Assembly (NCBI GenBank): GCA_963842885.1
Contig: CAWJIE010000001.1
Coordinates: 1 to 42,476 of the forward strand
Origin: an uncultured Nitrososphaerota archaeon
GTDB lineage: Archaea > Thermoproteota > Nitrososphaeria > Conexivisphaerales > DTJL01
DNA length: 42,476 bases
Reading direction: 5' to 3'
Shown here: positions 5,066-40,452 of the stretch, in pieces
Layout: every line of letters starts with the position of its first letter
Numbering within the stretch: the stretch's first letter is position 1
Notes under the pieces: generated by a model
What the model saw: the letters and a program-made list of their open reading frames with translations, nothing else
Told to the model about the DNA's origin: nothing
Databases searched by the model: none
Made by a program: the position numbers and the translations under genes

Positions 5066-5142
5066 GCGAGGCTGGTCTAGCCTAGTCAGGACGTCACCCT
5101 CCCAAGGTGGCAACGCGGGTCCAAATCCCGCGCCTCGCACCA
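5066..5142 (+). tRNA. tRNA-Gly(CCC), archaeal type, CCA encoded
   Basis: Acceptor stem GCGAGGC/GCCTCGC followed by ACCA, D arm GTCTAGCCTAGTCAGGAC, anticodon arm TCACC-CTCCCAA-GGTGG, T arm GCGGG-TCCAAAT-CCCGC. Confidence 0.88.
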
Positions 5143-8860: not shown

Positions 8861-11371
8861 TTAGGACTTGACAACTATGGTACCTTCAGGAGACGACTCA
8901 AACCTGAAGAGTGCATTCACTTCCGAATCTTCGAAGATTTCGGAATCGTGTGTGATGACGATGATTTGGCTAAGGGAGACGCTTTCGGGTGATGAATTGA
9001 AGTCCGAAATGAGTTTGACCAGAGACTTTCTGCGGTCGACGTCCAGGTGCGCCGTGGGCTCATCCAGTATGATGAAGTCCACTCTGCCTTTGCTCATGAG
9101 GCTGGCCATCGCGAAGCGAAGGGCCAAGGCGACCGCGACCTTCTCACCACCGCTCATTGAGGCGACATCGATCGTACCGGAGGCACCGTAGCATTCGATA
9201 TCCACTTCCCTTCTGCCTTCCTGGAGGGTTATCATGGAGAGTCCAACTCCGAAATTCCTGATGTACTCGGACGCCTTGCTAGAGATCTGCTTCAAGGCCC
9301 AGGAGCGGAGGCTCGTGGCCAAAGCGCCGTCTCTGTTGAAAAGGTCGGCACGAATGGTTTCGAAGAGCTTGACATATCTCGAAGCCCTGCTCAGCTTAGC
9401 CTCGGCTTGCGTGAGCGTCAGCAGTTCAGCCTTAGCGGTTTCGAGTTCTTTGACCAAACTGCCTTGCTCCCTCGCTTTGTCTTGGAGCCTCCGCTCGATT
9501 TCGGTGAAGTCCGACTGCAACTCTGCGTGCCTCGACTCATTATAGCTCACGGTCTCCGTTTGCAGAGTCAGGATGTCCGAAACGATACCTTGGGAGAAGG
9601 AATCTATGGCTAGGCTTCCGACGGGAGCCCTGCTGATATCGGTAGGAATGCCCCCGATGACCTTTTGCAGCGTGTTTTTCTCCTCGCTAAGCTTCTCCAA
9701 ATCATCTTGACTGGAAATCTTGTGTTCCTCCAGCCATGATAGCGCCGTATGCAAATTCGCTTTCTCATTCTGAACCTGTTTCTGGAGTTTCTTCGTCGCC
9801 GCGAGGTCAGCGTCAGCCTTAGACAGGGAATCTTCCAGTTCCTCGCGTCTTCCGAGCCTCGAAGATACCCTTTCCTGCTTTGTGAGGAGCTCTTTCAGTT
9901 TTCCCTCATTTGATTGGACGTCCCCTTCGTGCCCCTCCTTCTTCTCCAGAAGCCCCGTGAGGCGTTCCTGAGCTTGGTCATAGCTGCGTCTGTCTTTCAG
10001 AAGGCTTTGCGTCAGCTGAAGAGACTTCGCGTATCCATCGAGTTCGCCGTCCACAACCTTGAGTTCTTCCTCCTTGGCTCCGATCTTGTTCGATATCTCT
10101 GAAGAAGAGAAGGGCCTGTCGCAGGTGGGGCAGACTCCAGCATCCCGAATCTTCACGTAGTTCTCGAATTGGACTTTGATGCTGCCTTTTCTGTCGGTGG
10201 AGTCGAGGATCGATTTGTTGAGCCTCTTTGTCTGCTCTTCCAGCGCTTCCTGCGGCTCTTCGCAGGGTTTCTGAATCGAGGCCAGCTTGGCAATCTGCGG
10301 CTCCAGGTCAGAGATCTTCCTCTTGGACGCCTCGATCTTCTTCTTCGTATCAGTGATGTCCTTTGCGTATTCCTCCAGCTGGACTTGGAGTGGCTTGAGC
10401 TCGGATAGTTCGCCGCGAATATGCTTCTGTGTTTCGCTCAGAGTGCTTTCCTTTGAGTTGTATTCGTTCTCCCTTGCTTCGATGTCGCCCTTTCGGCTGG
10501 CCTGCACGAGGTACCCACTCGCCATGCCAATGTCTTCTTCGAGTGAGAGCAGCTCAGCTTTGAGCTGCTTCCGTTGTTCTTCTACATACGTGGTCAGGTC
10601 CCGTCTGCGGGCCTCGAGTTGGCCGAGCTTTGATTTCATCAGCTCGTATGAGGTCAGGTCGTTCCTGACCGATTCCTCTCTCGACTTCAGCCCAACCAGC
10701 TCCTGAGCGAGGGAATGCAGTTTCGTATCGGCTTCGTCCTTCCTCGTCTGGCGATCGGCTTTCATATTCTCCACTTGCTCGATCTCCGTGTCGTCAAATC
10801 CGCAATCGTTTCTGAGATGCTGTCTGAAGCCTGTGATCGCATCGCTCGAGTTACTGAATGCTATGTCCAACCTGTCGATACCGATGACGCCGTTGATGAG
10901 CTCCTTGAAGTCCTTTGGACTGTACCTGATGATCTCGTCCAGTTCTCCCTGCTGGACTATTGTCGAGACCCTCATTTTGTCGTAGTCCAACCCGATTATC
11001 TCGGATGCCTTGGATGTCATCGATTCGCCGAACTGTTTCCTCTCACCCTGGACTATCACGCGAGCGCCGCCGGAAAGCTCCCTGAGCACGCCTGACTCCA
11101 AGCTGCCGGCCTTCCCGAACCTCCTCTCCGCCAGATACTCCTTGTTCCCCAGAGTAAACCTGACCGACACGCCACCAGACGAAGCACCCCGTTTGACCAA
11201 GTTCTTCGCTTGTTCTCTCGTGTGTTCGCCGTAGAGAGCGTAGGTGATGGCGTCTATGACGGAGGACTTGCCTGCCCCGTTCTTCCCTATGAATATGTTG
11301 ACGCCCTCATCAAGATCGAGAGTCGTATCACCATGCGAAATGAAGTTGACTAGCCGCACGGTTTCGATCAT
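8861..11371 (-). CDS. rad50: Rad50 SMC-like ATPase
   Basis: Walker A GKNGAGKSS, Q-loop VQQGE, coiled coil with CPTC zinc hook, signature MSGGE, Walker B IILDEPT and H-loop VITH. Confidence 0.95.
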   Translation of the reverse strand: MIETVRLVNFISHGDTTLDLDEGVNIFIGKNGAGKSSVIDAITYALYGEHTREQAKNLVKRGASSGGVSVRFTLGNKEYLAERRFGKAGSLESGVLRELSGGARVIVQGERKQFGESMTSKASEIIGLDYDKMRVSTIVQQGELDEIIRYSPKDFKELINGVIGIDRLDIAFSNSSDAITGFRQHLRNDCGFDDTEIEQVENMKADRQTRKDEADTKLHSLAQELVGLKSREESVRNDLTSYELMKSKLGQLEARRRDLTTYVEEQRKQLKAELLSLEEDIGMASGYLVQASRKGDIEARENEYNSKESTLSETQKHIRGELSELKPLQVQLEEYAKDITDTKKKIEASKRKISDLEPQIAKLASIQKPCEEPQEALEEQTKRLNKSILDSTDRKGSIKVQFENYVKIRDAGVCPTCDRPFSSSEISNKIGAKEEELKVVDGELDGYAKSLQLTQSLLKDRRSYDQAQERLTGLLEKKEGHEGDVQSNEGKLKELLTKQERVSSRLGRREELEDSLSKADADLAATKKLQKQVQNEKANLHTALSWLEEHKISSQDDLEKLSEEKNTLQKVIGGIPTDISRAPVGSLAIDSFSQGIVSDILTLQTETVSYNESRHAELQSDFTEIERRLQDKAREQGSLVKELETAKAELLTLTQAEAKLSRASRYVKLFETIRADLFNRDGALATSLRSWALKQISSKASEYIRNFGVGLSMITLQEGRREVDIECYGASGTIDVASMSGGEKVAVALALRFAMASLMSKGRVDFIILDEPTAHLDVDRRKSLVKLISDFNSSPESVSLSQIIVITHDSEIFEDSEVNALFRFESSPEGTIVVKS

Positions 11372-12526
11372 TTACTGTTCCTCGAACCTCCCTTCGACGA
11401 AGGCTGACCACAGCAGGTCCGCTAACTCTTCAGATTCGCCTGACTCGGCCAGAGGCAGGAACTCTTCAAGAGCAAAGGCTGCCTTCTTCTTCTCACCCAA
11501 GACCTTGAGCGCGATGTTCTCCATCTCTTCGTCGATGTCTGAAGGGCGCTCTTGGTAGTCCTTCGCCGAGGTTACCCTTTCTTCGACAGGTTCCCACTGG
11601 CAGTACAGGCACTTCTCTTGAAGGGCCCGAATCGCGCTGGTGACCTTCGCGCTGTCGATATCCAGCCCCTTGATCGCCAGGTTCAAGAGAGGCTTCTTCT
11701 TGAGTTCTGCGATCTCAATGAGAAGTCTGGCCACCTGTTCCTTCAGTTCCTTGTACTGAACCTCTCTGTAGAGCCGCCTCCGTGAAGACGTGAGCTCGAC
11801 CCATTCGGGCTTCGCTTCGGATCCCGTGAAGTCGACGATGTAGAATCCCTTTCTAGAGTCCTTGATCCCTTCGTTCCCGGTCGCATCGGTGGACCCGGGA
11901 TAACACAGAGGGCCTCCCAGGTCCTCAAACTTCTTTTCAAACCTATCGTGGAGGTGCCCCATGGCGTAGTAGTCGAACCTCTTCGGCAAGTCCGCAGACG
12001 TCAGTTCGCCGGCAAACTGGTGGAATTCCGTGAGCGCCTGGTGCAATACCAATACCTTCTTTCCGCTCCGCTCCTGGATTATGGCGTCTAGCGCGTTGAG
12101 CTTCTGCTGTAGTTCGGAGATCTCAGTCCTTCTTCGCTTGTGGAATCCGACGAGGGTCAGCCCGTCAACGGTCAATGGCTTCCCGTCCTCCAGGTAGGTC
12201 GCAAGTCCCGCTCGCTGGTACAGCATCGCGGAGGGTGTTTCGTAGAGCCTACTGATGTCGTGCTCCCCAAGCGTATAGTAGAACCTGATGCCCTTCTCGT
12301 TCAATTGCTTCAGGAGTCCAACGAGCTTCACGAGGGCGGTTCCACTAGGCCTCGGGACATCGAAGATGTCTCCGGCATGGATGATGATGTCTACCCTGTC
12401 TTTGATCATCACCTGCATCGATTCCTCGAAGGCTTCATAGAAGTCGTCCTCCCTCTCCCTGAGTCCATAAGGAGAGGCGCCGAGATGAGTATCAGAGAGG
12501 TGGCCTACAAGCATTGGCTCTCTCAC
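11372..12526 (-). CDS. mre11: Mre11 nuclease
   Basis: Metallophosphoesterase motifs HLSDTHLG, HAGDIFD, GEHD, LHQ and MGHLH, plus YPGS. Adjacent to rad50. Confidence 0.93.
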   Translation of the reverse strand: MREPMLVGHLSDTHLGASPYGLREREDDFYEAFEESMQVMIKDRVDIIIHAGDIFDVPRPSGTALVKLVGLLKQLNEKGIRFYYTLGEHDISRLYETPSAMLYQRAGLATYLEDGKPLTVDGLTLVGFHKRRRTEISELQQKLNALDAIIQERSGKKVLVLHQALTEFHQFAGELTSADLPKRFDYYAMGHLHDRFEKKFEDLGGPLCYPGSTDATGNEGIKDSRKGFYIVDFTGSEAKPEWVELTSSRRRLYREVQYKELKEQVARLLIEIAELKKKPLLNLAIKGLDIDSAKVTSAIRALQEKCLYCQWEPVEERVTSAKDYQERPSDIDEEMENIALKVLGEKKKAAFALEEFLPLAESGESEELADLLWSAFVEGRFEEQ

Positions 12527-14064
12527 TCTTCCCTGATCGAGTCAGAAGTGGTCCCTGCCGCTATGCTTTCCACCTTCGCTCGCTCGGACCATTCCGCCAC
12601 GGCATCTATGTCTGCCCCCATCATTTTCTCCTCAACCTTGTCAATCTTGGCCAGTGACGGAAGAGTCACCCACTGGCCGAGGAGGACCGTTTCACCCACG
12701 TTCAGGGAAGGCAGGTAACTGGCCAGCTCTTCGCTGACGAGCTCGCTCGACTCGATGATGTAGCTCTGGTCCTTCGGCTGCGTGATCCTGGACACTGCCA
12801 ATGAGCCCATCTGGCTCAGGACATCTGAGTCCAGCCTGCTGGGTCTCTGCGACACGACAATCAACGCGACCCCGAACTTGCGCCCCTCCCGCGCGACCTT
12901 TGAGGCGACGTACTTGGCATCTGTGTCTCTGTCGTTCGGAAGGAACGAATGCGCCTCTTCGATCGCGAAGACGACAGGGGCCATGAACCGTATCCTCTCG
13001 CTCTTGTCCTCTCTTCCGGACAGCCTGTATCTGCGGGCCTTCTTCCTGTCTTCAAGCACTTCATCGAGGTAATAGGATATGACGATGGAGGCCTGCATCT
13101 CGGTCAGCTCCAGCATGTTCAAGACGTTGACCTGATTCGGCTTGAGCTGATCCACAGGGTCACCTATGTCTGGGTCGAGTATCGCTCCCTTCCTCCTCCG
13201 GGCCCTCTCCACGATCTCAGTTAGCCTCTCGGCGATCCTCTTCTCCTCCGCCTTCGATGTGTCACTCGCGATCAGGTTCGTCAGGCTTTCAAGCAGGGCT
13301 CCCCAGAAGTCCTTGGCCTGCCTGACTCCTTCGGTGAAGACCCTGTTCAAGACCGACCTTTGCCTTTCGGCCTTGGCCCTCACGTCCAAGACGTCGGCGA
13401 ACATCTCCACGTCCAGAAGTCTGGGGTTTATCCTAGCCTTGAGGTGGACGATGCTGGACAACTTCAGGTCCGAATACTCGCCCTGATAGTCGAATATCAC
13501 CAGGGTGCCCTTCACATCTGATAGGCGCTTGGCGAGCAGCGCGAGAAGGTTCGACTTGCCACTGCCCGTTGCGGCCAGGATCCCCAGGTGTCTAGAAGCG
13601 AGGCGATTGACATTGACGGACACGGGGACATTTTCATTTCGCAACAGGGTACCGACCTTCGCCCATCCCTTGTCGTCCCTGCTGAACACGTCCTTGAGCT
13701 CGGAGGGCGTAGCAGCGAAGACCTCCGACCCAGGCTCGGGTGGCAACGATGGAAGGTTCGACCCCCCTTTCCTAAGGTAATCCAGAAGGCCCAGCACCCT
13801 CACCGAAGCGAGGTTCCTCTTGTCTCGCGGGTTGCTTGAGGCGACTTTCTTGGCCTCCTGGGCAGATTGAAAGTTGGTGGCCGAGCCCAGTAGGTCGCTG
13901 CTGACTCGGCTCGCTTCAACTAGCCCCAGTACGTTGCCCTCAAGTGCCTCGACTGTGACGTACTCGCCTACTCTAGAAGGTTTCTCCGCCAGGTAATCGA
14001 ACCCAGATGGGCTCGCCTCGCCCGAAACGATGCCCACAAGGTTGCGTCGGCCTTCACTCGCCAA
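12523..14064 (-). CDS. herA: HerA bipolar DNA helicase/translocase
   Basis: N-terminal HAS barrel, RHLGILAATGSGKS, FAIEEAH and VAREGRKFG...VSQRPS. Probable TTG start at 14064. Confidence 0.93.
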   Translation of the reverse strand: MASEGRRNLVGIVSGEASPSGFDYLAEKPSRVGEYVTVEALEGNVLGLVEASRVSSDLLGSATNFQSAQEAKKVASSNPRDKRNLASVRVLGLLDYLRKGGSNLPSLPPEPGSEVFAATPSELKDVFSRDDKGWAKVGTLLRNENVPVSVNVNRLASRHLGILAATGSGKSNLLALLAKRLSDVKGTLVIFDYQGEYSDLKLSSIVHLKARINPRLLDVEMFADVLDVRAKAERQRSVLNRVFTEGVRQAKDFWGALLESLTNLIASDTSKAEEKRIAERLTEIVERARRRKGAILDPDIGDPVDQLKPNQVNVLNMLELTEMQASIVISYYLDEVLEDRKKARRYRLSGREDKSERIRFMAPVVFAIEEAHSFLPNDRDTDAKYVASKVAREGRKFGVALIVVSQRPSRLDSDVLSQMGSLAVSRITQPKDQSYIIESSELVSEELASYLPSLNVGETVLLGQWVTLPSLAKIDKVEEKMMGADIDAVAEWSERAKVESIAAGTTSDSIREE

Positions 14065-14917
14065 GTACTTCTCTCCCTCCTGTCTCAATCTCGAGACCTA
14101 GCACGTTGGCCAGTCTGCCCATGTCTTCGTTTGCCACCTTACACCTTTCGTGAGCGAGCCTCAACACGTAAGGGTATCCGGAGTAGCTCTTCGCGCTCAT
14201 CAAATCAAGAAGTCGCTCAGCACGCTGATTGTCGACATCGCCGGAGACCTCGACCTTGATGCATGGAGTGAACTCCGCCAGCCGGGCATAGAACACGGAG
14301 ACGCCGATCTTATCGTAGTATGGGCTCGAGAAGCCTGGAGAGCGCGAAGCCTTGTTGAAGTAGAACAAGTCTCCCACCCCTCCTTCCAGCATCACGTTGC
14401 TCTCCGATGTCTTGGATACGAAAACGATGTTCTCCTTGGCCATGAGATCCCTAGCGAATTCATAGAACCTGATCGGCTTCTTAAGCCTGCGATCGTAGAA
14501 TCTGGCGAGGACCGAGCCATCCACCAAGACAAAGTCTATCTTCTTCGCGCTTTCGGTTGCCAATCCATATTCAAACTCCATGCCGAGGCTTTCGAGGTAG
14601 AGCCTGGGATTGAAAACAACCTGACTGCCTTCCATCGCCCCGAGAGTGCTCAGGTCTACGGTATATCGAGGTGGGACTAGGAACGAGTTGTCTGCCAACG
14701 AGGAGACGGCCTCGACGGCGTAAAGGTAGTAGCCTTGGAACATGACCAAGTTCCAGCTGCTGTCGATGCCAGCAACGGTGGAGTTGCCGTTCTGGGGAGC
14801 ATAGGCGTTCCACATGCTCCTGGCTTTGCCGAGCAGTTCGGCGTTGGCAGTGGCATCGATCTTGCTTAGGATTCTCTCTCTGTCCGCAAGGGCTTGTTCA
14901 TACGTTTGAATCAGCAT
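14054..14917 (-). CDS. nurA: NurA 5'-3' nuclease
   Basis: Motifs AGIDSS, VLVDGS, VSKTS and GYPYVLRLAHERC. First gene of the operon. Confidence 0.9.
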   Translation of the reverse strand: MLIQTYEQALADRERILSKIDATANAELLGKARSMWNAYAPQNGNSTVAGIDSSWNLVMFQGYYLYAVEAVSSLADNSFLVPPRYTVDLSTLGAMEGSQVVFNPRLYLESLGMEFEYGLATESAKKIDFVLVDGSVLARFYDRRLKKPIRFYEFARDLMAKENIVFVSKTSESNVMLEGGVGDLFYFNKASRSPGFSSPYYDKIGVSVFYARLAEFTPCIKVEVSGDVDNQRAERLLDLMSAKSYSGYPYVLRLAHERCKVANEDMGRLANVLGLEIETGGREVLGE

Positions 14918-15269
14918 GAATGAGCCCCCCGCAGTTCTCCGCGCGAAATGAATGTGGGCGACAGTCCTCACATGAAGCGGCCATATCGATCACAAAAGGC
15001 TGGCGATAGCGGTTCATCGAGCGCATGCAATGTGTCAAGATGATATCTCACCACCGCCGTGGTTATCACCTTTTCTGCTCGGCGCTCGAGTGGCAGTAGG
15101 TGGGACGCACAGATCCTTTCCCGTTGCCTTTTCAGAGTAGCTGGATGCCTGGGGCCTCGCCGTCATCGAGTAGTATTTCTGCAGGCGCACCTCGATCAGG
15201 TTGCACGGCCACGAGGAGAGTGATTATGACAAGCCTAATGCTCTGACCGGTCTTCTTCGCCTCTTGCTA

Positions 15270-15864
15270 CCTGTGATTGGCTTCATCAACAGTATCTCTC
15301 CCGCTGTTCCTGATCTTTTCATCGACCAGCCTCACGGCATAGCAGCAGGCGCAGACATTTCCCGCCCAAGCTAATGTCCGGCCGTCATTCTTTGCATACA
15401 ATCGAACTATGCATTGTCCTCCCGCACTTTTCACAGCGAAGCCTCCTCCCTCCGGGCTTTATCAAAGACAGGACTCCACCCGTGTAGTCTATCTCTCTCT
15501 TGCTCAGGACTCCCATCGACGCCAGGAAATCCAGCACGTTCCTGATTTCGTGATCGGAAGCGTTGTATCCAAGCCTTCCGAGCTTGTCGATTACGTCTTC
15601 ACCGGTCCTCTCCTCAAGGAGGAGCTCGAGCATGGCGGGAAGGTACGGGTACTTCGGCGGGCCTTTCTCTGCATCCGGCGTGTTTCCGAGCTCAGGGCTT
15701 CTTCGATAGGCGTGCCTCGATATCCTGTTCACTTTCAGGCAGCCCGTGCAGGCATAGAAGGTGGGCAGCCACCTGCGCTTCCCGTTGACGGTGACGAACG
15801 CGTACAGCGTCCTCTGCAGCGTCTGCTTCCCGCATCCAGTGCAGGTCCTGTAGATCAGAGGCAT
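15270..15864 (-). CDS. Multi-Zn-ribbon / winged-helix protein, putative regulator (frameshift near 15390)
   Basis: CTGC...CTGC, a central wHTH-like segment (EIRNVLDFLASMGVLSK), CEKC, and a further CACC in the next frame. Confidence 0.55.
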
Positions 15865-15881: not shown

Positions 15882-15893
15882 TCGCTTTTAACG
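15882..15893 (-). promoter_or_regulatory. Archaeal TATA-containing motif CGTTAAAAGCGA
   Basis: TTAAAA lies 22-27 nt upstream of the ATG at 15864. The identical 12-mer occurs at 39674 and 40441. Confidence 0.6.
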
Positions 15894-16000: not shown

Positions 16001-16333
16001 AAAGGATAAGCCGCATGCTCTTCGGTGGGCTCTCTGCAAAGAATCGCACACCCCGACCGCCCCTCCACCGTCCGACACCCTCTTGCGAGGTTAGCCGGAC
16101 GGCTTCAACGGGATTCCCTTGGCTGAAGGGAACTCTCCACATCATTGTGATGCAGAGAACGGTTTCGGCCCGTCTCATCTCATCTGAGAAAGGCCAACCT
16201 CCGCGCCCCGATCGGGGAACGGAAGCACCCGTAGCCCAGTCAACGCTGGGTCGGGATCATCAGGGGGAAACGTCCCTTTCGGGACTCGTCCTCCACAAGG
16301 GAGGAAAACGGGCCTAAGCCCTCATCCCCTTTC
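16001..16333 (-). ncRNA. Putative highly structured ncRNA or ssDNA element
   Basis: Eight consecutive hairpins, GAAA and GCAA tetraloops, G-U pairs on the minus strand, and a possible closing helix. Confidence 0.45.
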
Positions 16334-16557
16334 GTTACCTCATCGTACTTTACGTAAGACTGTACGGCTCCTCCTACCTTTGTTTCTGCGAAGGTGTTCC
16401 GGGCATCTAGGCAATGCTCCTCATATGCCGTAGCCGACTACTGCCCTTCTTCGGCGTCTACCTTTCCTTTCAGAATGGCCGCCTGAGCCAGCTCAGACAA
16501 GTATGACCACCGCCTGGAAAAAGGAAGTGCCTACACCTTCTGGGGGGAGGCAGTGCC

Positions 16558-29922: not shown

Positions 29923-32900
29923 TCAAATTCGAAGGCGCCTGATTTCGTACAACGAGCCCTTCCTGACCAAGACCCCCTCGTCCACCATCTGGTCGAGGTA
30001 CTCCTGGACCTGTCTGTCGGAGACGCCGGTGATCTCTGTAAGGGTGTGGACCGGCGTCGACGGGTCGCCTTCCAGCCTCTCCAGGATGGACTCCCTGACC
30101 TTCCTCTCTGGCTCAGGGATGTCTCTTTGTTTCTCCTTCTCCTCCCCGCCGAACAGCTTCTCCATCTCCATGTCCACCTCTGACAGCTTCTCCTGAAATG
30201 GCTGCTTTGGCTTTGCGGGCTGGCTCACGGCGGCCGGTGTCTCAGCTTCACCGCTTTGCGGTTGAAGTCGAGGCTGGCGCGGCGACGGTGCTGACGTCGG
30301 TGTCGGAGCCAGGTCTTTCAGGGCGAGCCTGTCAAGCTCGCCTCTTGATTTGAGATATGCCTTCCAGGCCTCGAGGACGTATCCGTCGGGAACGCCCTTG
30401 GACATTTCTATCTCCCTGATTTGGGGGAAGTATACCCTGTCCTTTGCGCCGCGTTCCTTCATGTCGTCGAAGACCATGTTCCGGGGGAACTTCAGGTTCT
30501 GGGCGACGGGCACCCTTTCCTTCTCCTGGCCCCTTATCCCGGCGAAGTTCAGGGTCTCCTTGATCAGGTAGGCCTCCTCCATGCTCCACCCCGAGTCCCG
30601 CAGCGCGTCGAGCACCTCCTCTCCGTCCTTCCCCCCAGCCATCATGTCGGCCGCCCACTCGGTTGCCTCTCTCAGCGGCTTCGGGGGAGCCTTGACCGAG
30701 GCCGAGGCCGATTCTTCGTAGGCCTTTTTGATCGGGTTGAAGTCTATTGGGACCATCGCGGCCGCCCTCGCGGCCTCTGCAAAGGGGACGAGGGAAGGCA
30801 GCAGGATTCCGCATTTTCCTTCCCATTTCTCCTGGTTCGTCTTCAGGAACGCGGCCAGCCCGGCGGTGTACGCGTCGTCCGTGACCGGCGGCCTCTCCTT
30901 CGCCTTCTCATGGCCCCCATCTAGAGGACCGGGGGCTGTCGGAGGCGGAGGGGCCGCGCTTTCACCCTTGCCTTCACCTTTCGCCAGTTCCTCCCGGGGG
31001 TTCACCCTTACGTTGTACTTCCTGTCCTCGCCCAGTATCCTCCTGATCTCCTTTTCATTCTCTTCCGAGTCCACGACGAAGAGTATGTTCCTGCCCGCGT
31101 TCTTCTCGTAGTTCTTCAGGACCTGTTCGGCGCTCTTGCTAGGATAGGTCTCCACCTCCACCGCCGTCGGCGTGTCGCACCAATTCACGGGGTCGACGGC
31201 CCCCACGATATCCGCTTCCCTGTCGGGTATCGTTTTGTACACGAGTATGTCCGGCCTCTCGGCATTGTACTCTCCGTAGTCGACGATGGTGTACCAGCCG
31301 AGGTCCCAGTACCTCTTCAGTTCATCGCTGATCAGGCTGTGGTGTATCGCGTCTCCCGTCCTGTTGCCATGGATCTCCCGGGAGAAGTACATCCCGACGG
31401 CCTTGCCCGTTATCTCCGCGTACGTCACCCTGGACCTTACCTTCTCGTCCTCATTCTCCGGCTCCCTGCCCTGGAACAGCCCCTCCCTGACGTGGACCCG
31501 TATGAGGCCCTTGTCGTTCAGCGCGTTTATCTCCCCCTGAACGAGGTTGCTGTCCCACTTGTTCGCGCTGTACAGGGCGGCCTTGACCCACTTGACGTCC
31601 TTCGGCCCCGGCCCCTCTCGGTAGAGCATGCACAGTATGGCCCAGGCGACCGGCGTCTCCTGAGGCAGGCCCAGCATGGCCAGGTAGCTGGTCGTCTCCC
31701 TCCGGTAGGCCGGCTCCTTCTTGCTGTCGTACACGCCGGCGTACTCTGCCATCTCATTCTTCATGAATTTGAAGACGGCCTCCACGTCCCTGACGGGAGG
31801 GTGGACCAGAGGCACCTCCACCCTGTAAGTGCGCAGGATGCCGCTGCTCCCCACGGGGTTCTTTCTCATCACGCATTCCCAGTTCGCCATCCCTGCGAGG
31901 AAGCCCGGCAGCTTCTCGTCTCGGGGGGAGAGGAGCTTGGCGACCCTCTGCGCGTCCTCGGCATTCAGCCTGAACGAGATTATGTTTCCGACGTTCCCCG
32001 TCACGGCTTCGAAGAGCCTGTCGGGGATCTGCGATATGTTCTGGTGCGCCATTATTATGTAGAGCCCGAACTTCGCCGCTTCAGACACTATCGTCTGGAA
32101 TATCTCCATCTGGCTCGCGTTCTGGAACTCGTCTATCACCAGGAACACAGGGGTCCTCGCGCCGGAGGTCATCCCGGACCTCTCCAGCTCCCTCGCCCTC
32201 TCCTGTATCATGAAATAGAGCCTCAGGATGATGCTGTTCGTCACGAGGGTCCTGAAGTTGTCCGGCAGGTAGAACCTCGAAAGCCTGAAGATGGAGAGGC
32301 GGCCCGGCTTGAGCATTTCGCCGAAAGGGACCGTCGTGGCCTCCGCGCAGAAGATCCGCGGCGTCAGGGCGTCGGCGGGAAGGACGAAGTTGGATATCCT
32401 GTTTATCACGGCCATGAACGCGTCGGCCTGGAGCTTCGAGATCGCCTCGATCGTCTTGCTCATTATGTCCTCCTGCACCTTGCTGCTCCTGAGCAGGGTC
32501 CCTATCCCGCTTTCGTCTCTCTTCAGCATGTCCGTGAGCAGGAAGTGGAGGTCCTTGAACGAAGGGGAGTCGGAGAACTGGTAGAGGAAGTACAGGGCCC
32601 CCCGGAAGATCCATATGAGGCGGGGGGCCTCCTTGACGTCCGTGCCGAAGAGCTCCTTGAGCACGGTGAGCATCTCGTCCACCTGGGTCTGCACGAGCAT
32701 CGCCTTCTCCTCACGGGTCCTGTCCTTTGCGCTGGAGACGTCAGGGGGAAGCTCCAGGGGGTTGAGTCCGAACGGAGTGTAGCGCGGGTCGAAGAGGAGG
32801 ACCCTCTCCTTGTCCAAGGGGTCTATCCGCATGGCCAGTTCGAGGGCGGCGTCCCCGTGGGGGTCGATGAACACGATGGAGCACGGCATCTTCTTCTGGA

Positions 32901-33021
32901 CCTGCTCGCTGAAGAGGTAATCCATTATCACCATCAGGGCGTTCGTCTTCCCTGAGCGCGTCGCCCCGATCATGTAACAATGGGACCGCAGGTCGTCAAG
33001 GGTCATGCCTTCGAAGATCAT
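29923..33021 (-). CDS. VirD4/TraG/TrwB-like (HerA/FtsK superfamily) ATPase fused to wHTH, PD-(D/E)XK nuclease-like and C-terminal wHTH domains, 1032 aa
   Basis: SHCYMIGATRSGKT, FIDPHGD, FGLNPLE, FLVIDEFQN and SEAAKFGL..AHQ; later IHH, RPDILVY and AVEVET. The true start is the ATG at 33021, in an ATGA overlap with the upstream gene. Confidence 0.85.
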   Translation of the reverse strand: MIFEGMTLDDLRSHCYMIGATRSGKTNALMVIMDYLFSEQVQKKMPCSIVFIDPHGDAALELAMRIDPLDKERVLLFDPRYTPFGLNPLELPPDVSSAKDRTREEKAMLVQTQVDEMLTVLKELFGTDVKEAPRLIWIFRGALYFLYQFSDSPSFKDLHFLLTDMLKRDESGIGTLLRSSKVQEDIMSKTIEAISKLQADAFMAVINRISNFVLPADALTPRIFCAEATTVPFGEMLKPGRLSIFRLSRFYLPDNFRTLVTNSIILRLYFMIQERARELERSGMTSGARTPVFLVIDEFQNASQMEIFQTIVSEAAKFGLYIIMAHQNISQIPDRLFEAVTGNVGNIISFRLNAEDAQRVAKLLSPRDEKLPGFLAGMANWECVMRKNPVGSSGILRTYRVEVPLVHPPVRDVEAVFKFMKNEMAEYAGVYDSKKEPAYRRETTSYLAMLGLPQETPVAWAILCMLYREGPGPKDVKWVKAALYSANKWDSNLVQGEINALNDKGLIRVHVREGLFQGREPENEDEKVRSRVTYAEITGKAVGMYFSREIHGNRTGDAIHHSLISDELKRYWDLGWYTIVDYGEYNAERPDILVYKTIPDREADIVGAVDPVNWCDTPTAVEVETYPSKSAEQVLKNYEKNAGRNILFVVDSEENEKEIRRILGEDRKYNVRVNPREELAKGEGKGESAAPPPPTAPGPLDGGHEKAKERPPVTDDAYTAGLAAFLKTNQEKWEGKCGILLPSLVPFAEAARAAAMVPIDFNPIKKAYEESASASVKAPPKPLREATEWAADMMAGGKDGEEVLDALRDSGWSMEEAYLIKETLNFAGIRGQEKERVPVAQNLKFPRNMVFDDMKERGAKDRVYFPQIREIEMSKGVPDGYVLEAWKAYLKSRGELDRLALKDLAPTPTSAPSPRQPRLQPQSGEAETPAAVSQPAKPKQPFQEKLSEVDMEMEKLFGGEEKEKQRDIPEPERKVRESILERLEGDPSTPVHTLTEITGVSDRQVQEYLDQMVDEGVLVRKGSLYEIRRLRI

Positions 33022-34601
33022 GGAGGTGCGCCCGAAGGAGTTCCCTCCTTCAAAGGGGAGGCTCTTGGCCTGCGCTTCGCCATCAGAGCCGGAAGCTCGG
33101 CGAGGAAGCCGGGCCTGGGGTCCGCATGTTCGTACTTGATCGGGCCGTAGACGGACATGAGGAGGCTTACGTACTTCTCGAGGTCGTCTCCGTCTTCTGA
33201 TGAGAGGAGGAACTCCGTCCTCTTCGCCTTCCCGTCGTAGACCATTTCGAAGCTCCGGCAGGCCCCGCAGACGACGTGCTGGAGCCTCGCCGTCTCCTTG
33301 TCGGGGAGCCTGTCGTCGAAGAGGGGCACCGCCGTCAGCCTGGCTACGGACAGGCCGGGCTCGCCCCTCCCTTCCCCTTCCCCTCCCGCCGCCTCCTTCC
33401 AGTTGGCCATATCGGATATGAAAGAGCCCGGGAGGAGCTGAGTCGTGGGCCTCCAGATGTAATTCAACGTGGCCAGCGTCTTCGCCTGCATCCCCGTGGG
33501 GAAGTGCACGTAGTAGGGGAGGGCTTCGGGGGTGAGGATGAAGGACGGAGCTTCGGCCCTCGAAGAGCCGTACCTCTCGAGGTACTTCCCTATGTCCGTC
33601 ACCATGGTCCTTTCGACCAGGTTCACCAGCATCCTCGGGTCGCGGTAGAGGAACTCCTCCAGCCTGTCGAATTCGTCGGCGCACCTCGAGAAGGGAAGGT
33701 CCCTCACGGTCTGCGCGCAGCCCTGACCCTCGCCCACCCACATCCCCTGGATCGCTACAAGGACGTTGGATTGAGTCAGTGCCTCCTCTATCTTCTTCGC
33801 CCTGCGGTCCACCTGCCTGTACCACTCTTCGCCCAGCTCCTTCCTCTCCCTCTCCACGCCTTCGTACGTGACGTCCTTCGTTTCGGCGAAGCCTTTGAAC
33901 GAATGCAGCTCCTCCTTGATGCGGCTCATGCTCCTCGAATGGTCCTTGAAGACGAAGAGGAACTGCACCCACGCGAAGCGGGGGTCGTCCCTTTCCATAG
34001 CGTGTATGGTTTCGCCGACGAGCGTCTGAGGCGGCTCGCAGACGGGGACGCTCATGGGGTGGAAGTCCTTCAGCGCGACGTTGAAGAAGACGACGTCGGC
34101 GTCCTTCCCTCCTCCAACTTCGGCCTTTCCTCCGTCGGCCGCCGGCATCGCCGTGTACGTGTAGTTGCTCCCTCTCCTGGCGTAATGCTTCACCATCGTG
34201 CCAAGCCTCGGGTATCTGAGATGAGTGGCCCTCGGTCTGCGAGGGAGAGGGCCGAGCACGGGGACGAGGAAGACCATGAACGGAAGGGCCGCGAGGAGCT
34301 GGGAGACAGGCAGGTAGTAGAAGGGCCTCCCTTCGAACAGAAGGGGGAGGGCGAGGCTGAGCGCGGAGCTGACCAGCGCGCCCGCCAGCAGGAGGTAAAG
34401 CCTCTTGAGGCTCCGCGCGGGTTCGCTCGCCGGCTTCGGCACCAGCCCCAGGTAGGCAAGGACGGAGGCCCTGTTCTTCTCGGACGTGTCCTCACCGATC
34501 GGGTGGAGGAACCTCAGCGGGTCGTGGTAATAGAGGAAGAGGTAGAGGACTATGATGTAGGGAACGGGCGTCCGGAGGAAGAGAACGTCGAAGGAGTTCA
34601 T
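33018..34601 (-). CDS. Membrane protein translationally coupled to the VirD4-like ATPase
   Basis: About three N-terminal hydrophobic segments followed by a large soluble domain. ATGA overlap with the ATPase gene. Confidence 0.75.
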   Translation of the reverse strand: MNSFDVLFLRTPVPYIIVLYLFLYYHDPLRFLHPIGEDTSEKNRASVLAYLGLVPKPASEPARSLKRLYLLLAGALVSSALSLALPLLFEGRPFYYLPVSQLLAALPFMVFLVPVLGPLPRRPRATHLRYPRLGTMVKHYARRGSNYTYTAMPAADGGKAEVGGGKDADVVFFNVALKDFHPMSVPVCEPPQTLVGETIHAMERDDPRFAWVQFLFVFKDHSRSMSRIKEELHSFKGFAETKDVTYEGVERERKELGEEWYRQVDRRAKKIEEALTQSNVLVAIQGMWVGEGQGCAQTVRDLPFSRCADEFDRLEEFLYRDPRMLVNLVERTMVTDIGKYLERYGSSRAEAPSFILTPEALPYYVHFPTGMQAKTLATLNYIWRPTTQLLPGSFISDMANWKEAAGGEGEGRGEPGLSVARLTAVPLFDDRLPDKETARLQHVVCGACRSFEMVYDGKAKRTEFLLSSEDGDDLEKYVSLLMSVYGPIKYEHADPRPGFLAELPALMAKRRPRASPLKEGTPSGAPP

Positions 34602-34975: not shown

Positions 34976-36730
34976 ATGCAGGATGCCAGGATGGTCTCCG
35001 CCGATGGGCTTTGGGTTTCCCTGACGATGGAACACCTCGAGAGGGAAACCTATGGTCTCGATTTCGTCAGCGGAGGACTGCACGACTTCAAGAACTCCTC
35101 TCCTGAGAGATACAGGTTGACTGCCAAGGCCGACCCTACCATCGACCCCAACACCCTTATCTCCTGTCTTAGAGCTGGAATCGAGGACGTTTGCGGTGTA
35201 AAGCCATCTGTAATGCCCCCGTCGTACGCCTCTGGTCTGATGGAGTTTGAGTGGTCAGTTCAGGGTATCGATGAAGGGGAGTCATTCCGCAAGCTTGTTT
35301 CGCTTGTCCAGGCGGCTCGCATAGGAAAGGTCAGTTCCATTCCACAGGGAGGGTCGATACCCAAGGGGAAGCAGTGTGAATTCTGCGGAAGAACTAACGA
35401 TGGCGGGTGGGAATGGTCCAAGTGCAAGCAGTGTGGAAGTTCGTTTTGTCCGGAACACGCTGAACCCGCTGAACACAATTGTTCGCATAAAGTCGCGCTC
35501 GGCAAATCGGGCCGGTGGCCCAAGGGAGGCCGCAGGGAGAACACATGGGTGGACGACATCGGGGTATACAGGACTGTGTCGGGCACGCGCTTAAGGCGGT
35601 CTCACAAGAAAGGCTATGCCATCGCGATGGCCACGGTGGCTATTCTTCTGATAGCAACCTTGCCATACTACGCTCCCGATCAGCTACTGCCTTTGACATC
35701 CTACGTAAGGGGTGCCGAAAACACGGCGCGCGCATGGGTCGATCAACTCCTGCACGCGACGCCCGGTCAGACCGCCGAACTGGCGACCTTCTCCCCCGCG
35801 CAACCCGACTTCGTCGACGGCTCTGCCAACGTAGCCTTCCCGCAGGACTACCAGACACTGGCCAACTACTCTCTGACATTCATCAACAGGGACAGAGCCC
35901 TGAGCGGCCTTCAGCCAGTGACCCTCAGCCCGATAGCTTCCGGACAGCAGCATGCGGATTCGATGCTGTACTACGACTACTTCTCTCATTGGGATGTCCA
36001 GGGATACAAACCTTACATGAGGTACTCTCTCCTTGGCGGTCGGGGAGGCGTTGCCGAGAACATCGGCCAATCCTACTGCACTACGTCAACCGCCGACTCC
36101 AGTTCGTTGACTGTAGCGCCCTGCTCGCTCCAGAACCTTGAGAACGGCATTGCGGCCTCTGAATGGGGAATGATGTATAACGACGCGGCTTGGGGCAACG
36201 GCCATCGGGACAACATCCTCAACCCGACACACAATCGCGTCTCGATAGGCATTTCGTACGACCTGTCATCGGGGAAGGTGTACTTTGTGGAGGACTTCGA
36301 GGATTATCTCATCAATCCGGTCACGTTCTCGTTCGCGGCGAACTCCGTCACCCTCTCGGGCACAGTCTCGACCTACCTAGATTTCAGCCAAGGAGAGGTG
36401 ACGGTCATGTACGATACGACACCGCTGGCGATACCTCAGCCCGAACTAAACACGAACCCCTCCTACACGGGCGCGTATGGCGGCGGCACTCCGATCGGCG
36501 CGGTGTTCACGCCCTGCCCGGCAGGCTATGTCTGCTCGGGCACCACCACGGACGGGCTGATCGCTTCTTATGCCACGACGTGGCAGTCGACTGCGGGGTC
36601 GCTTCTGTTGCAGTTCTCGCTCTCCCAGTTCACATCAAAGTATGGTCCTGGGATTTACACGCTCTACCTCTGGCCTAGCCAGACGGCCTCAAGTCCTATC
36701 ACAAGCATCTCCCTTCAAGTCGGAACGTAG
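34976..36730 (+). CDS. AN1-type zinc finger - TM - CAP/SCP domain surface protein
   Basis: CEFC...CKQCGSSFCPEH..PAEHNC (AN1), TM segment YAIAMATVAILLIATL, and CAP motifs INRDR, QQHADSM, FSHW, ENIG and GHRDNIL. Confidence 0.85.
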   Translation: MQDARMVSADGLWVSLTMEHLERETYGLDFVSGGLHDFKNSSPERYRLTAKADPTIDPNTLISCLRAGIEDVCGVKPSVMPPSYASGLMEFEWSVQGIDEGESFRKLVSLVQAARIGKVSSIPQGGSIPKGKQCEFCGRTNDGGWEWSKCKQCGSSFCPEHAEPAEHNCSHKVALGKSGRWPKGGRRENTWVDDIGVYRTVSGTRLRRSHKKGYAIAMATVAILLIATLPYYAPDQLLPLTSYVRGAENTARAWVDQLLHATPGQTAELATFSPAQPDFVDGSANVAFPQDYQTLANYSLTFINRDRALSGLQPVTLSPIASGQQHADSMLYYDYFSHWDVQGYKPYMRYSLLGGRGGVAENIGQSYCTTSTADSSSLTVAPCSLQNLENGIAASEWGMMYNDAAWGNGHRDNILNPTHNRVSIGISYDLSSGKVYFVEDFEDYLINPVTFSFAANSVTLSGTVSTYLDFSQGEVTVMYDTTPLAIPQPELNTNPSYTGAYGGGTPIGAVFTPCPAGYVCSGTTTDGLIASYATTWQSTAGSLLLQFSLSQFTSKYGPGIYTLYLWPSQTASSPITSISLQVGT

Positions 36731-38847: not shown

Positions 38848-39654
38848 CTATGCGCCCGTCGCCATCACGGAGCCTTGAACCGTAAACACGCTGCCGCCTT
38901 CAAACGTTGCTGTGATAGTGTATTGATAGCTGTAGCCTGCCACGACCACAGGCTTTGAGCTCCCGGAGCCCGAGCCGGCGCCGTAGAACGCTACAAGCGA
39001 GTCACCGCCATACAGGGTGATGGTGCCAGAGCTGGGCTCGGCGGACGGAACCGGAGGGTTCGGGAAGTCGAAGTGGTAGTAGGTGACATTCGTGAGGGAG
39101 TAGCCAGCCGGAACGTGAAACGTGTACGAATAGGATGTAGGGTATGACGAAGTATAGAACCCCTGGTTCCCGTCAGCCATGGCCTGCAACGCGTTCCAAG
39201 CATAGTCCACGCCGTCGACGGTGATGAGGACGCCGGGGACGGAGCCGTTCAGACCGCTCACCTCGAAGGTCGGTGGCATGAGAGCGAGAGGGTCGTATGT
39301 CACGACCGCCGTCATCCCAGGCGTCAGGGGATTGCCGGCGCTGATCAGCGGCGACCAGACCGGGGCCGGATTCAGCCCCGGGGTCTTGAGGTCCAGGCCC
39401 GCGAAGACCACATCCATGTTCGTAATGGGGAGCGAGCCCACGTTCTTGACGACGAGGACGAAGGTGTAGTTCGAATTGGCAGGTGCGATGAGCTGGGCGC
39501 TCTCGATGTCAACTATGGCCTTCAGCTGCTGGGTGGAGGCGGAGCTTTCAAACATGGAGAAGACAAGCAACCCCCCTGCGATCGTGATCGCTATCAGGAT
39601 GACCGTCGCCAGGATGGGCGACAGGGCACGACGCGCGCGTCTTGGGTGGAACAT
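38848..39654 (-). CDS. Archaeal type IV pilin / archaellin-like N-terminal domain protein
   Basis: RRA|LSPILATVILIAITIAGGLLV and VVKNVGS. Confidence 0.85.
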   Translation of the reverse strand: MFHPRRARRALSPILATVILIAITIAGGLLVFSMFESSASTQQLKAIVDIESAQLIAPANSNYTFVLVVKNVGSLPITNMDVVFAGLDLKTPGLNPAPVWSPLISAGNPLTPGMTAVVTYDPLALMPPTFEVSGLNGSVPGVLITVDGVDYAWNALQAMADGNQGFYTSSYPTSYSYTFHVPAGYSLTNVTYYHFDFPNPPVPSAEPSSGTITLYGGDSLVAFYGAGSGSGSSKPVVVAGYSYQYTITATFEGGSVFTVQGSVMATGA

Positions 39655-39673: not shown

Positions 39674-39685
39674 TCGCTTTTAACG
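39674..39685 (-). promoter_or_regulatory. TATA-containing motif CGTTAAAAGCGA
   Basis: Exact 12-mer, 20 nt upstream of the pilin start at 39654. Confidence 0.6.
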
Positions 39686-40440: not shown

Positions 40441-40452
40441 TCGCTTTTAACG
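40441..40452 (-). promoter_or_regulatory. TATA-containing motif CGTTAAAAGCGA
   Basis: Exact 12-mer, 28 nt upstream of the pilin start at 40413. Confidence 0.55.

Follow-up and report, generated by a model that had tools for sequence, protein, structure and literature searches.

The core of the hammerhead ribozyme has for about forty years been treated as a fixed three-way junction. Discontinuous hammerheads occur in the 3' untranslated regions (UTRs) of mammalian Clec2-type genes, where they follow the coding region and their cleavage detaches the downstream portion of the transcript; to our knowledge, self-cleaving ribozymes are rare in archaea. The multi-hairpin non-coding RNAs GOLLD and ROOL, which are often found in phage or mobile DNA, are several hundred nucleotides (nt) long, are not known to have a ribozyme-like core and are of unknown function. 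Here we describe a structured RNA from an uncultured Nitrososphaerota archaeon, encoded in a 42,476-nt stretch of DNA (contig CAWJIE010000001.1, assembly GCA_963842885.1; the whole stretch is referred to as the window), whose sequence and covariation suggest, on balance, a self-cleaving ribozyme of the type-I hammerhead kind with an altered architecture, which would cut between positions 16055 and 16054, at the 3' end of a mobile-element operon.

Position numbers and roles within the hammerhead core follow Perreault et al. 2011 (PMC3088659), as given in the available portion of that paper. Kink-turns (k-turns) are defined, in the part of Huang et al. 2021 (PMC8191799) used here, by a 3-nt bulge followed by tandem G:A and A:G pairs, and the same source supplies the rules that govern their folding.

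Positions 16001-16333 of the window had initially been described, in what is called the original prediction below, as a non-coding element of about 330 nt with eight hairpins and a possible closing helix, lying just downstream of a gene for a PC4-like single-strand-binding protein; it was interpreted as a large RNA of the GOLLD/ROOL type, or as a signal acting in single-stranded DNA (ssDNA). We compared this locus with its relatives in Nitrososphaeria genomes and metagenomes, and here present the architecture of the resulting RNA family, its genomic setting, and the explanations that can be offered for it.

Results

A hammerhead-like core

Architecture was analysed at 55 loci (window included), and 39 distinct sequences were compared; 33 distinct members of standard length were aligned with MAFFT on sequence only, structure being ignored (alignment A3). 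At 51 of the 55 loci the RNA parses as stem I, CUGANGA, a variable middle, GAAA, stem III, U, a nucleotide H, and the return strand of stem I. These loci thereby hold the letters that define a hammerhead, namely C3 to A9 with N7 free, G12, A13 and A14, the pair A15.1-U16.1, and a nucleotide other than G at position 17, and the core is flanked by stems I and III, both backed by covariation. Three of the four loci that fail to parse are contigs truncated upstream; in the fourth (L279) the core is present but stem I is bulged. The core signature positions lay outside the first search pattern.

Six columns of the seven-letter core strand are invariant, and the fifth, N7, is C in 16, A in 13 and U in 10 of the 39 distinct sequences. 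The GAA strand leading from stem II to stem III is invariant in A3, where the first pair of stem III (15.1-16.1) is A-U, and the closing pair of hairpin IIc, which adjoins G12, is G-C, in all 33 sequences. H17, the one nucleotide that separates stem III from stem I, is C in 30 sequences, A in five, U in four and G in none, and the triplets that precede the predicted cleavage position are GUC (30), GUA (5), GUU (3) and AUU (1). Stem I is open and 3-9 base pairs (bp) long. Fast natural hammerheads have a tertiary contact, loop-loop or pseudoknot, between stems I and II; none was identified here, no test aimed at it having been made. In the order of its elements, as read from these sequences, the junction looks like a type-I hammerhead.

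Covariation, strand and extent of the conserved structure

RNAalifold applied to A3 recovers stems I and III, hairpins IIa, IIb and IIc, the distal arm of stem III and its apical hairpin, with a compensatory change in 26 of 42 pairs. When the structure is counted on the same alignment, 92.6% of 1450 cells are paired, as against 41.6-50.2% when partners are slid by 1-3 columns, double changes occur in 29 of 44 pairs, and none of five measures was reached in any of 500 shuffles; such cell counts overstate the number of independent events, because the sequences form only ~11 clusters at 80% identity. The four core-proximal pairs of stem I are 100% paired in the 33 sequences, and compensatory changes, such as CCCUC/GAGGG and ACCC/GGGU, are seen in each; pairing in stem III reaches 99.6%, and six of its eight pairs have double changes. 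The homologues differ by hairpin-length insertions and deletions of all sizes. Judged on the alignment, stems I and III, the three hairpins of the stem II region, the k-turn arm and the apical hairpin are all supported by covariation, and the element is almost certainly a genuine conserved structured RNA family. The pairing is that of an RNA read on one strand: G-U accounts for 223 of 1452 paired cells, several pairs are G-U in 29-33 of the 33 sequences, and the A3 structure read on the opposite strand is only 78.9% paired.

In the window the element occupies the minus strand of a 693-nt intergenic gap, with a PC4-family gene upstream and a Zn-ribbon gene downstream. The minimum free energy (MFE) of 16001-16333 on this strand is -163.0 kcal/mol, compared with -134.3 +/- 6.3 kcal/mol in 100 dinucleotide shuffles (z -4.55; 0/100 as good), the plus strand folds less well (z -3.33), and the entire gap has a fold z of -4.23 (20 shuffles). 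All eight hairpins of the original prediction were recovered by RNAfold on the minus strand, at the re-derived positions 16290-16304, 16272-16285 (GAAA loop), 16228-16255, 16197-16226, 16167-16195, 16133-16159, 16114-16132 and 16067-16103 (GCAA loop). The outline of the original prediction is thereby supported: within an archaeal mobile element, on the strand of its genes, lies a non-coding element whose structure is specific to that strand.

Its extent has to be revised. The conserved unit measures ~150-265 nt across relatives and corresponds in the window to 16051-16267, together with one flanking hairpin on each side, rather than to the ~330 nt first delimited. The closing helix proposed between 16321-16330 and 16001-16010 forms only if exactly 16001-16333 is folded and is missing from the fold of the 693-nt gap; the flanks that it would join have no detectable similarity in any relative, and among the strain copies described below one variant keeps its pair (16003) and another breaks it (16008).

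Scanning the window and nine related loci against Rfam 15, at the gathering score and at E <= 10, gave no relevant family, in keeping with the earlier statement that the family was not recognised. The matches were a tRNA-Gly(CCC) at 5066-5142, at the gathering score, and otherwise chance-level matches to long non-coding RNAs (lncRNAs; E 1.4-7.4), including two at E ~6 in the region of the element itself; GOLLD, ROOL, RNase P RNA, signal recognition particle (SRP) RNA and every other Rfam 15 family were without a covariance-model match there. The suggested analogy with giant RNAs of the GOLLD/ROOL type is also at odds with the small size of the conserved core and with its contents, a hammerhead junction signature and a k-turn that had gone unseen.

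Three hairpins in place of stem II

Between A9 and G12 all 39 distinct sequences have three hairpins (IIa, IIb and IIc), usually separated by single-U spacers; the strand thus runs from A9 through U, IIa, U, IIb, U and IIc, and five helices surround the core. Where IIa and IIb meet the junction, their pairs are almost invariant and do not covary, which suggests specific contacts. We envisage IIc as the equivalent of stem II, with IIa and IIb inserted at the link between A9 and G10.1, an arrangement that would create a four-way junction closed by two G-A pairs. An alternative is that IIa represents stem II and opens with a U-U mismatch, in which case the insertion would lie before G12; a U-U mismatch opening stem II is reported as tolerated in the available portion of Perreault et al. 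(PMC3088659).

Literature searches that combined the hammerhead with archaea, Nitrososphaeria, archaeal viruses, the k-turn or a stem II four-way junction returned no description of such an RNA, and neither a k-turn nor a stem II of several helices is mentioned for any hammerhead in the available portions of Perreault et al. 2011 (PMC3088659) and Weinberg et al. 2017 (PMC5737381).

A kink-turn and a conserved distal arm in stem III

A standard k-turn lies 8 bp up stem III, with a 3-nt bulge followed by G-A-A-G opposite U-G-G-A. It conforms to the published definition, a property that the search pattern itself partly demanded in the main set, so that the invariance of the k-turn and of the internal loop beyond it in the main alignment is partly due to that pattern. 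Among four loci found without the k-turn pattern, three keep both G:A pairs and the fourth (L320) has G changed to A at 2n; the strands of the internal loop are kept in all four loci obtained with a pattern that did not require them. The pairs 3b:3n and 4b:4n are A:G and G:U, respectively, in all 33 aligned sequences, and -1b:-1n is C:G in 18 and U:G in 15. The rules for folding in metal ions (G at 3n and C:G at -1b:-1n) are thus obeyed, the U:G variant at -1 not being covered by them. The drum and RAGATH-18 k-turns, which have the same -1b:-1n, 3b:3n and 4b:4n values, are predicted to fold in metal ions (Table 1 in the available portion of PMC8191799).

Beyond the kink, the arm consists of a strongly covarying 7-bp helix (the NC helix, in which six pairs show double changes, in up to 22 of the 33 sequences), an asymmetric internal loop and then a variable hairpin. 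On account of its strand lengths and central letters, we take the internal loop to resemble an A-platform tetraloop receptor. Docking of a GNRA loop of hairpins IIa-IIc on this internal loop was considered and is not general, many members having other loops. The invariant U-U-G-G at the linker between IIb and IIc is complementary to part of the internal loop, and it is a matter of speculation that a fold-back contact between the two is enabled by the kink. The two extra stem III hairpins of the window (Table 1) are missing from the 33 standard members.

The host genome encodes L7Ae-family proteins. Two known kinds of RNA were considered and set aside. For a box C/D small RNA, the strand before IIa is C-box-like, but the letters before the 3' strand of stem I are GGUC, CAUU, CGUA or UGUC, never a D box; for an H/ACA RNA, the k-turn is below the internal loop and not above it, and no search for ACA was made.

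Flanking hairpins and a competing fold

In 27 of 37 distinct relatives, the 45 nt that precede stem I contain a stable hairpin (z < -1.5), at a median gap of 5 nt and without conservation of its sequence. When 65 nt of downstream sequence are included in the fold, the MFE structure pairs the 3' strand of stem I with downstream letters in 23 of 37 sequences and with its stem I partner in seven of 37. Downstream folds in which at least three of the first four nt are paired were found for 30 of 36 sequences, as against 450 of 720 shuffles, a modest enrichment. Comparison of L264, L266, L260 and L275 shows 92-98% identity over the 50 nt that follow the predicted site and differing outer flanks, which indicates that the 3' hairpin belongs to the unit. 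The window's own flanks are unlike those of all six subclade relatives compared.

Two further observations concern the region upstream of stem I. The peat clade (L262, L265, L270 and relatives) has a second copy of the core strand and the U that follows it ~25 nt before stem I; this copy overlaps the 5' hairpin in part and may reflect either an alternative pairing or a past duplication. In the window, an A/T-rich stretch at 16345-16352 on the minus strand, ~20-25 nt upstream of the 5' boundary at 16333, differs from the promoter-like 12-mer described below, with no relative alignable to it; it could be a TATA box for an independent transcript of the RNA.

Distribution and decay

The search for relatives started with BLAST over 61 related genomes, which gave short collinear matches in two of them (G005 and G048) that, read by eye, contained shared modules with compensating stems. 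A covariance model of one small module, the k-turn arm (R1), matched four of 151 genomes of the class, the window's own among them. A second model, covering 80 positions in the 3' half of the element (R2), was run on 36 genomes of the order and found the RNA in three, each from the family to which the window belongs; it gave none in 150 other genomes of a phylum-wide sample. An exact pattern limited to the k-turn arm identified 45 metagenome contigs and, in species-representative genomes, eight loci, all labelled Nitrososphaerota, Nitrososphaerales, Thaumarchaeota or uncultured archaeon; further copies were found through covariance models in G005, G006 and G048. A pattern limited to the 5' half gave 19 loci, 11 archaeal (four of them new) and eight bacterial, the latter being chance matches in which the rest of the element was missing on inspection. 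In total, the RNA is present in 45 metagenome contigs and at about 13 loci in Nitrososphaeria genomes. Three specific patterns gave no match in IMG/VR viral contigs, and blastn gave none in INPHARED phages or PLSDB plasmids. The output of an earlier, too permissive pattern, which fixed 18 bases and allowed two wide gaps, was set aside, since nearly all of the stretches matched (120 in genomes, 120 in viruses) were chance; stretches L006-L205 were not screened with the models.

This patchy distribution is as expected for mobile DNA, and we regard the RNA as carried by integrated or mobile elements of Nitrososphaeria, archaea of the ammonia-oxidiser type. The window's own genome (2.03 Mb, 87% complete) has a single copy. 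G005 has three, of which one is intact (L250/L246) and two are decayed (L252 and L253), having lost both A9 and the k-turn motif. The coexistence of one intact and two decayed copies suggests repeated acquisition and decay of carrier elements.

Strain-level variation was read from four peat or freshwater metagenome assemblies (X1-X4; DNA contigs only), whose copies are 95-99% identical. The letters of the hammerhead core are unchanged in all four, and the variants at 16154 and 16171 strengthen their pairs, from G-U to G-C or A-U.

Genomic context

At all 55 loci the RNA is intergenic and on the same strand as the flanking open reading frames (ORFs). The adjacency to a PC4-like gene that had been noted holds for the window, where the element lies downstream of it on the same strand, and not as a general link: PC4 is the upstream neighbour at only three of the 55 loci (window, L256 and L264), and the idea of a PC4-like protein as the dedicated partner of the RNA was therefore rejected as a general rule. 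Protein family c2 (130-143 amino acids, aa) is found upstream at 13 loci, followed in order by PC4, at the three loci just named, or an unrelated 67-aa protein (14 loci). Other loci have ParB, an STIV B116-like protein, helix-turn-helix (HTH) regulators and many proteins without a family. The window region itself encodes ParB, an N6/N4 methylase, DUF6876 and a 1349-aa VirD4/TraG-like protein, and shares five further genes with L246; no integrase or att repeat was found in it.

The promoter-like 12-mer that precedes the Zn-ribbon gene occurs in three exact copies on the minus strand (15882-15893, 39674-39685 and 40441-40452), two of them ~20-28 nt before an annotated ATG (15864 and 40413) and the third ~20 nt before an ATG at 39654. 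It is probably the BRE/TATA promoter of the element, serving leaderless genes and mRNAs. Because the downstream gene has a promoter-like 12-mer of its own, the RNA appears to end the upstream unit rather than to lead the next gene.

Table 1. Coordinates of the features of the RNA and its neighbours in the window
Feature	Position	Strand	Remarks
Upstream PC4-family gene, 74 aa	16558-16782	-	Pfam PF02229, E 3.1e-9
5' flanking hairpin, 5 bp, GAAA loop	16272-16285	-	Ends 4 nt before stem I
Stem I, 5' strand CCCC	16264-16267	-	Pairs with 16051-16054; covariation
Core strand CUGAUGA (hammerhead C3-A9)	16257-16263	-	Only position 7 varies in the family
Hairpin IIa	16228-16255	-	Single U's at 16256 and 16227
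Hairpin IIb	16197-16226	-	Helix base (GCU.../...GGU) nearly invariant; distal pairs covary, 5/5 with double changes
Hairpin IIc	16167-16195	-	Preceded by linker U16196; closing G-C where hammerhead G10.1-C11.1 would be
Core strand GAA (G12, A13, A14)	16164-16166	-	Invariant in the alignment
Stem III lower helix, 5' strand ACCG	16160-16163	-	Pairs with 16056-16059; first pair A16163-U16056 (15.1-16.1)
Two extra stem III hairpins	16133-16159, 16114-16132 (16114-16159)	-	Only in the window subclade (window, L256, L264, L266, L285)
K-turn, bulged strand	16103-16113	-	C-helix 16110-16113, loop GUU 16107-16109, G-A-A-G 16103-16106; tandem G:A and A:G
Distal arm	16068-16102	-	7-bp NC helix 16096-16102/16068-16074; internal loop; apical hairpin 16080-16089, GCAA loop
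Distal-arm internal loop	GCUAAC 16090-16095 opposite GGUGU 16075-16079	-	Invariant, 6 nt versus 5 nt, central U-A-A
K-turn, non-bulged strand	16060-16067	-	U-G-G-A 16064-16067, C-helix GGGG 16060-16063
H17, single unpaired C	16055	-	C30, A5, U4, G0 in the family; predicted scissile bond 16055/16054
Stem I, 3' strand GGGG	16051-16054	-	Pairs with 16264-16267
Competing 3' hairpin	16024-16058	-	Unconstrained MFE; takes in the predicted cleavage site and the stem I 3' strand
Promoter-like 12-mer, A/T-rich core	15882-15893	-	Ends 18 nt before ATG 15864 of the Zn-ribbon gene
Downstream Zn-ribbon gene, 159 aa (cluster c5)	15385-15864	-	c5 downstream of the RNA in 10/55 loci

Several neighbouring features were recorded in passing. 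The 1349-aa protein (29923-33972, minus strand) has signatures of both HerA/DUF87-like and VirD4/TraG-like ATPases and a C-terminal winged helix, and is a candidate for an unusual fused coupling protein of an archaeal transfer system. At the far side of the mobile-looking region, a 584-aa protein (34976-36730, plus strand) has matches to CAP (cysteine-rich secretory) and AN1 zinc-finger domains. A Rad50-Mre11-HerA-NurA operon (8861-14971) and the start of the Zn-ribbon gene (15385-15573) have 97-98% identical counterparts in a further species of the genus (G002, contig C106, which ends there), and other members of the family match the region of this repair operon at only ~65%; the operon may itself be on a mobile region next to the tRNA-Gly(CCC) gene.

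Discussion

Proposed mode of action

If the hammerhead variant outlined above is active, the RNA would cleave itself between C16055 and G16054. The k-turn in stem III would fold the distal arm back, so that the invariant internal loop could buttress the enlarged core, and the kink might form in Mg2+ alone or upon binding of the host's L7Ae. As the RNA would follow the last gene of the upstream transcription unit, it is expected to act in cis: cleavage would leave the upstream transcript with a 3' end that is fixed in position, strongly folded and carries a 2',3'-cyclic phosphate, and RNA that reads through would be cut off. The released 3' piece, or a longer RNA that has stayed uncut, may refold into the hairpin that captures the 3' strand of stem I, which would either render the cut irreversible or limit it to a co-transcriptional time window. 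Only tentatively would we extend this picture to its full form, in which the RNA would be the first natural hammerhead with a core expanded to a five-helix junction, its activity set by a k-turn arm that needs or is switched by L7Ae, and would cut and cap the transcripts of Nitrososphaeria mobile elements.

A number of observations speak against such an assignment. The three-way junction of a hammerhead is missing, A9 being followed by U (38 of 39 distinct sequences) and a hairpin instead of G10.1, and the RNA should for that reason not be filed as an ordinary hammerhead. The available text of Perreault et al. 2011 (PMC3088659) offers no natural precedent for an interrupted A9/G10.1 neighbourhood, although the supplementary variant figures S6-S8 and alignments, which lie outside that scope, might hold unusual forms of stem II. 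No Rfam hammerhead model matched the window region or five relatives even at E <= 10, and RF00163 stayed below the cut-off in all four carrier genomes, its weak matches lying elsewhere; this null result weighs little, because an insertion of 60-100 nt would defeat such models. A fold constrained to the hammerhead is a median of 4.4 kcal/mol above the MFE, and nearest-neighbour folding favours the competing structure. The small number of sequence clusters and the partial dependence of the k-turn and internal-loop invariance on the search pattern, both mentioned above, belong here as well. Among the strain variants, that at 16098 creates an uncompensated G-G mismatch in the helix of the k-turn arm in all four runs, that at 16066 changes the 3n G of the k-turn to A in three runs, and that at 16065 alters the essential 2n G in one run and should break the k-turn; the arm thus seems to be less strictly kept in this lineage than the family-wide picture suggests.

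Other explanations

The RNA might instead be a non-catalytic structured RNA or ribonucleoprotein, such as a scaffold bound by L7Ae, a protein decoy, or a cofactor of replication or partition, with a junction that is a non-cleaving remnant or resembles a hammerhead by coincidence of letters. Much of the conserved sequence would indeed be unneeded by a hammerhead (the k-turn, the internal loop of 6 and 5 nt, and the helix bases of IIa and IIb, which hardly vary), the remodelling of the stem II position has no counterpart among the active hammerheads in the available portion of Perreault et al. (PMC3088659), and hammerhead models fail to match. We nevertheless judge this explanation unlikely, as it gives no reason why the hammerhead letters should be invariant over ~11 clusters with only N7 varying, why position 17 should avoid G, or why core and k-turn should have been lost together in decayed copies. 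Still more doubtful is a cis-regulatory element of the 3' UTR or intergenic region that works without cleavage, as a terminator, an antiterminator or a ligand or protein switch, the choice of partner for the GGGG strand deciding on read-through. Capture of this strand by the competing 3' hairpin in 23 of 37 MFE folds, the conservation of the first 50 nt where the outer flanks are not conserved, and the position of the RNA between transcription units would all suit such a switch; yet 3' pairing is only modestly commoner than in shuffles, there is no obvious need to control read-through into a gene that, in the window, is preceded by a promoter-like motif of its own, and the core letters would be left unexplained.

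That the hairpins act as DNA, as a single-strand origin or ssDNA promoter used after transfer, was one of the two interpretations in the original prediction, and would fit both the VirD4/TraG-like ATPase and PC4-like single-strand-binding protein encoded in the region and the hairpin arrays typical of such signals. G-U pairs are frequent and conserved, however, the structure fits the opposite strand far less well, and the unpaired stretches that are conserved form motifs of RNA, in which 2'-hydroxyls take part in the geometry or chemistry; PC4 is moreover a rare neighbour, and many carrier loci are without conjugation genes within the stretches examined, all of which makes an ssDNA signal very improbable. 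Chance hairpins in a GC-rich spacer, or a short protein gene, can hardly be credited at all: ORFs of 73-128 aa do overlap the region on both strands (for example 16015-16317 on the plus strand, 100 aa), but more than 55 homologous loci show compensatory changes and hairpin-length insertions and deletions, the fold lies well outside its shuffles (z -4.55), and the antisense ORF family is open at only 16 of 55 loci, the window's ORF not being a member.

Significance and comparison with known systems

Were the proposed ribozyme activity correct, an RNA in which every catalytic letter is kept, stem II has become three hairpins and a k-turn arm has been added would show how far the hammerhead core can be rebuilt; it would also provide a natural test of L7Ae-assisted ribozyme folding, and a template for finding ribozymes missed by current covariance models. 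Should the rebuilt core use different catalytic contacts, it would constitute a new class of self-cleaving ribozyme derived from the hammerhead, and even without cleavage the RNA would stand as a newly described family of archaeal RNAs, well supported and with a textbook k-turn. The RNA serves as a marker for mobile elements of Nitrososphaeria from soil, peat and hot springs that otherwise lack annotation, and points to insulation at the RNA level between their transcription units.

With the hammerheads of Clec2-type genes the RNA has in common its position after a coding region, and it differs in that theirs is an ordinary three-way core, eukaryotic and without a k-turn. Its k-turn resembles those of the Kt-7 type, such as drum and RAGATH-18, in the values of Table 1 in the available portion of PMC8191799, and the host has L7Ae genes; in contrast to these, it is set within stem III of a hammerhead-like core, has U:G at -1b:-1n in 15 of 33 sequences, and is altered at 3n or 2n in some strains. 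Closest of all is the type-I hammerhead (RF00163; PMC3088659, as available to us), with which the RNA shares an open stem I, a seven-nt strand with position 7 free, GAA, the A-U pair of stem III, a non-G nucleotide before the predicted cut, GUC as the commonest triplet (30 of 39), a G-C pair adjoining G12, and a setting between mobile-element genes, as described for many of the bacterial hammerheads studied there. It departs from that type in having five helices instead of three, two U-flanked hairpins between A9 and the G-C pair, and a k-turn followed by a long conserved arm in stem III.

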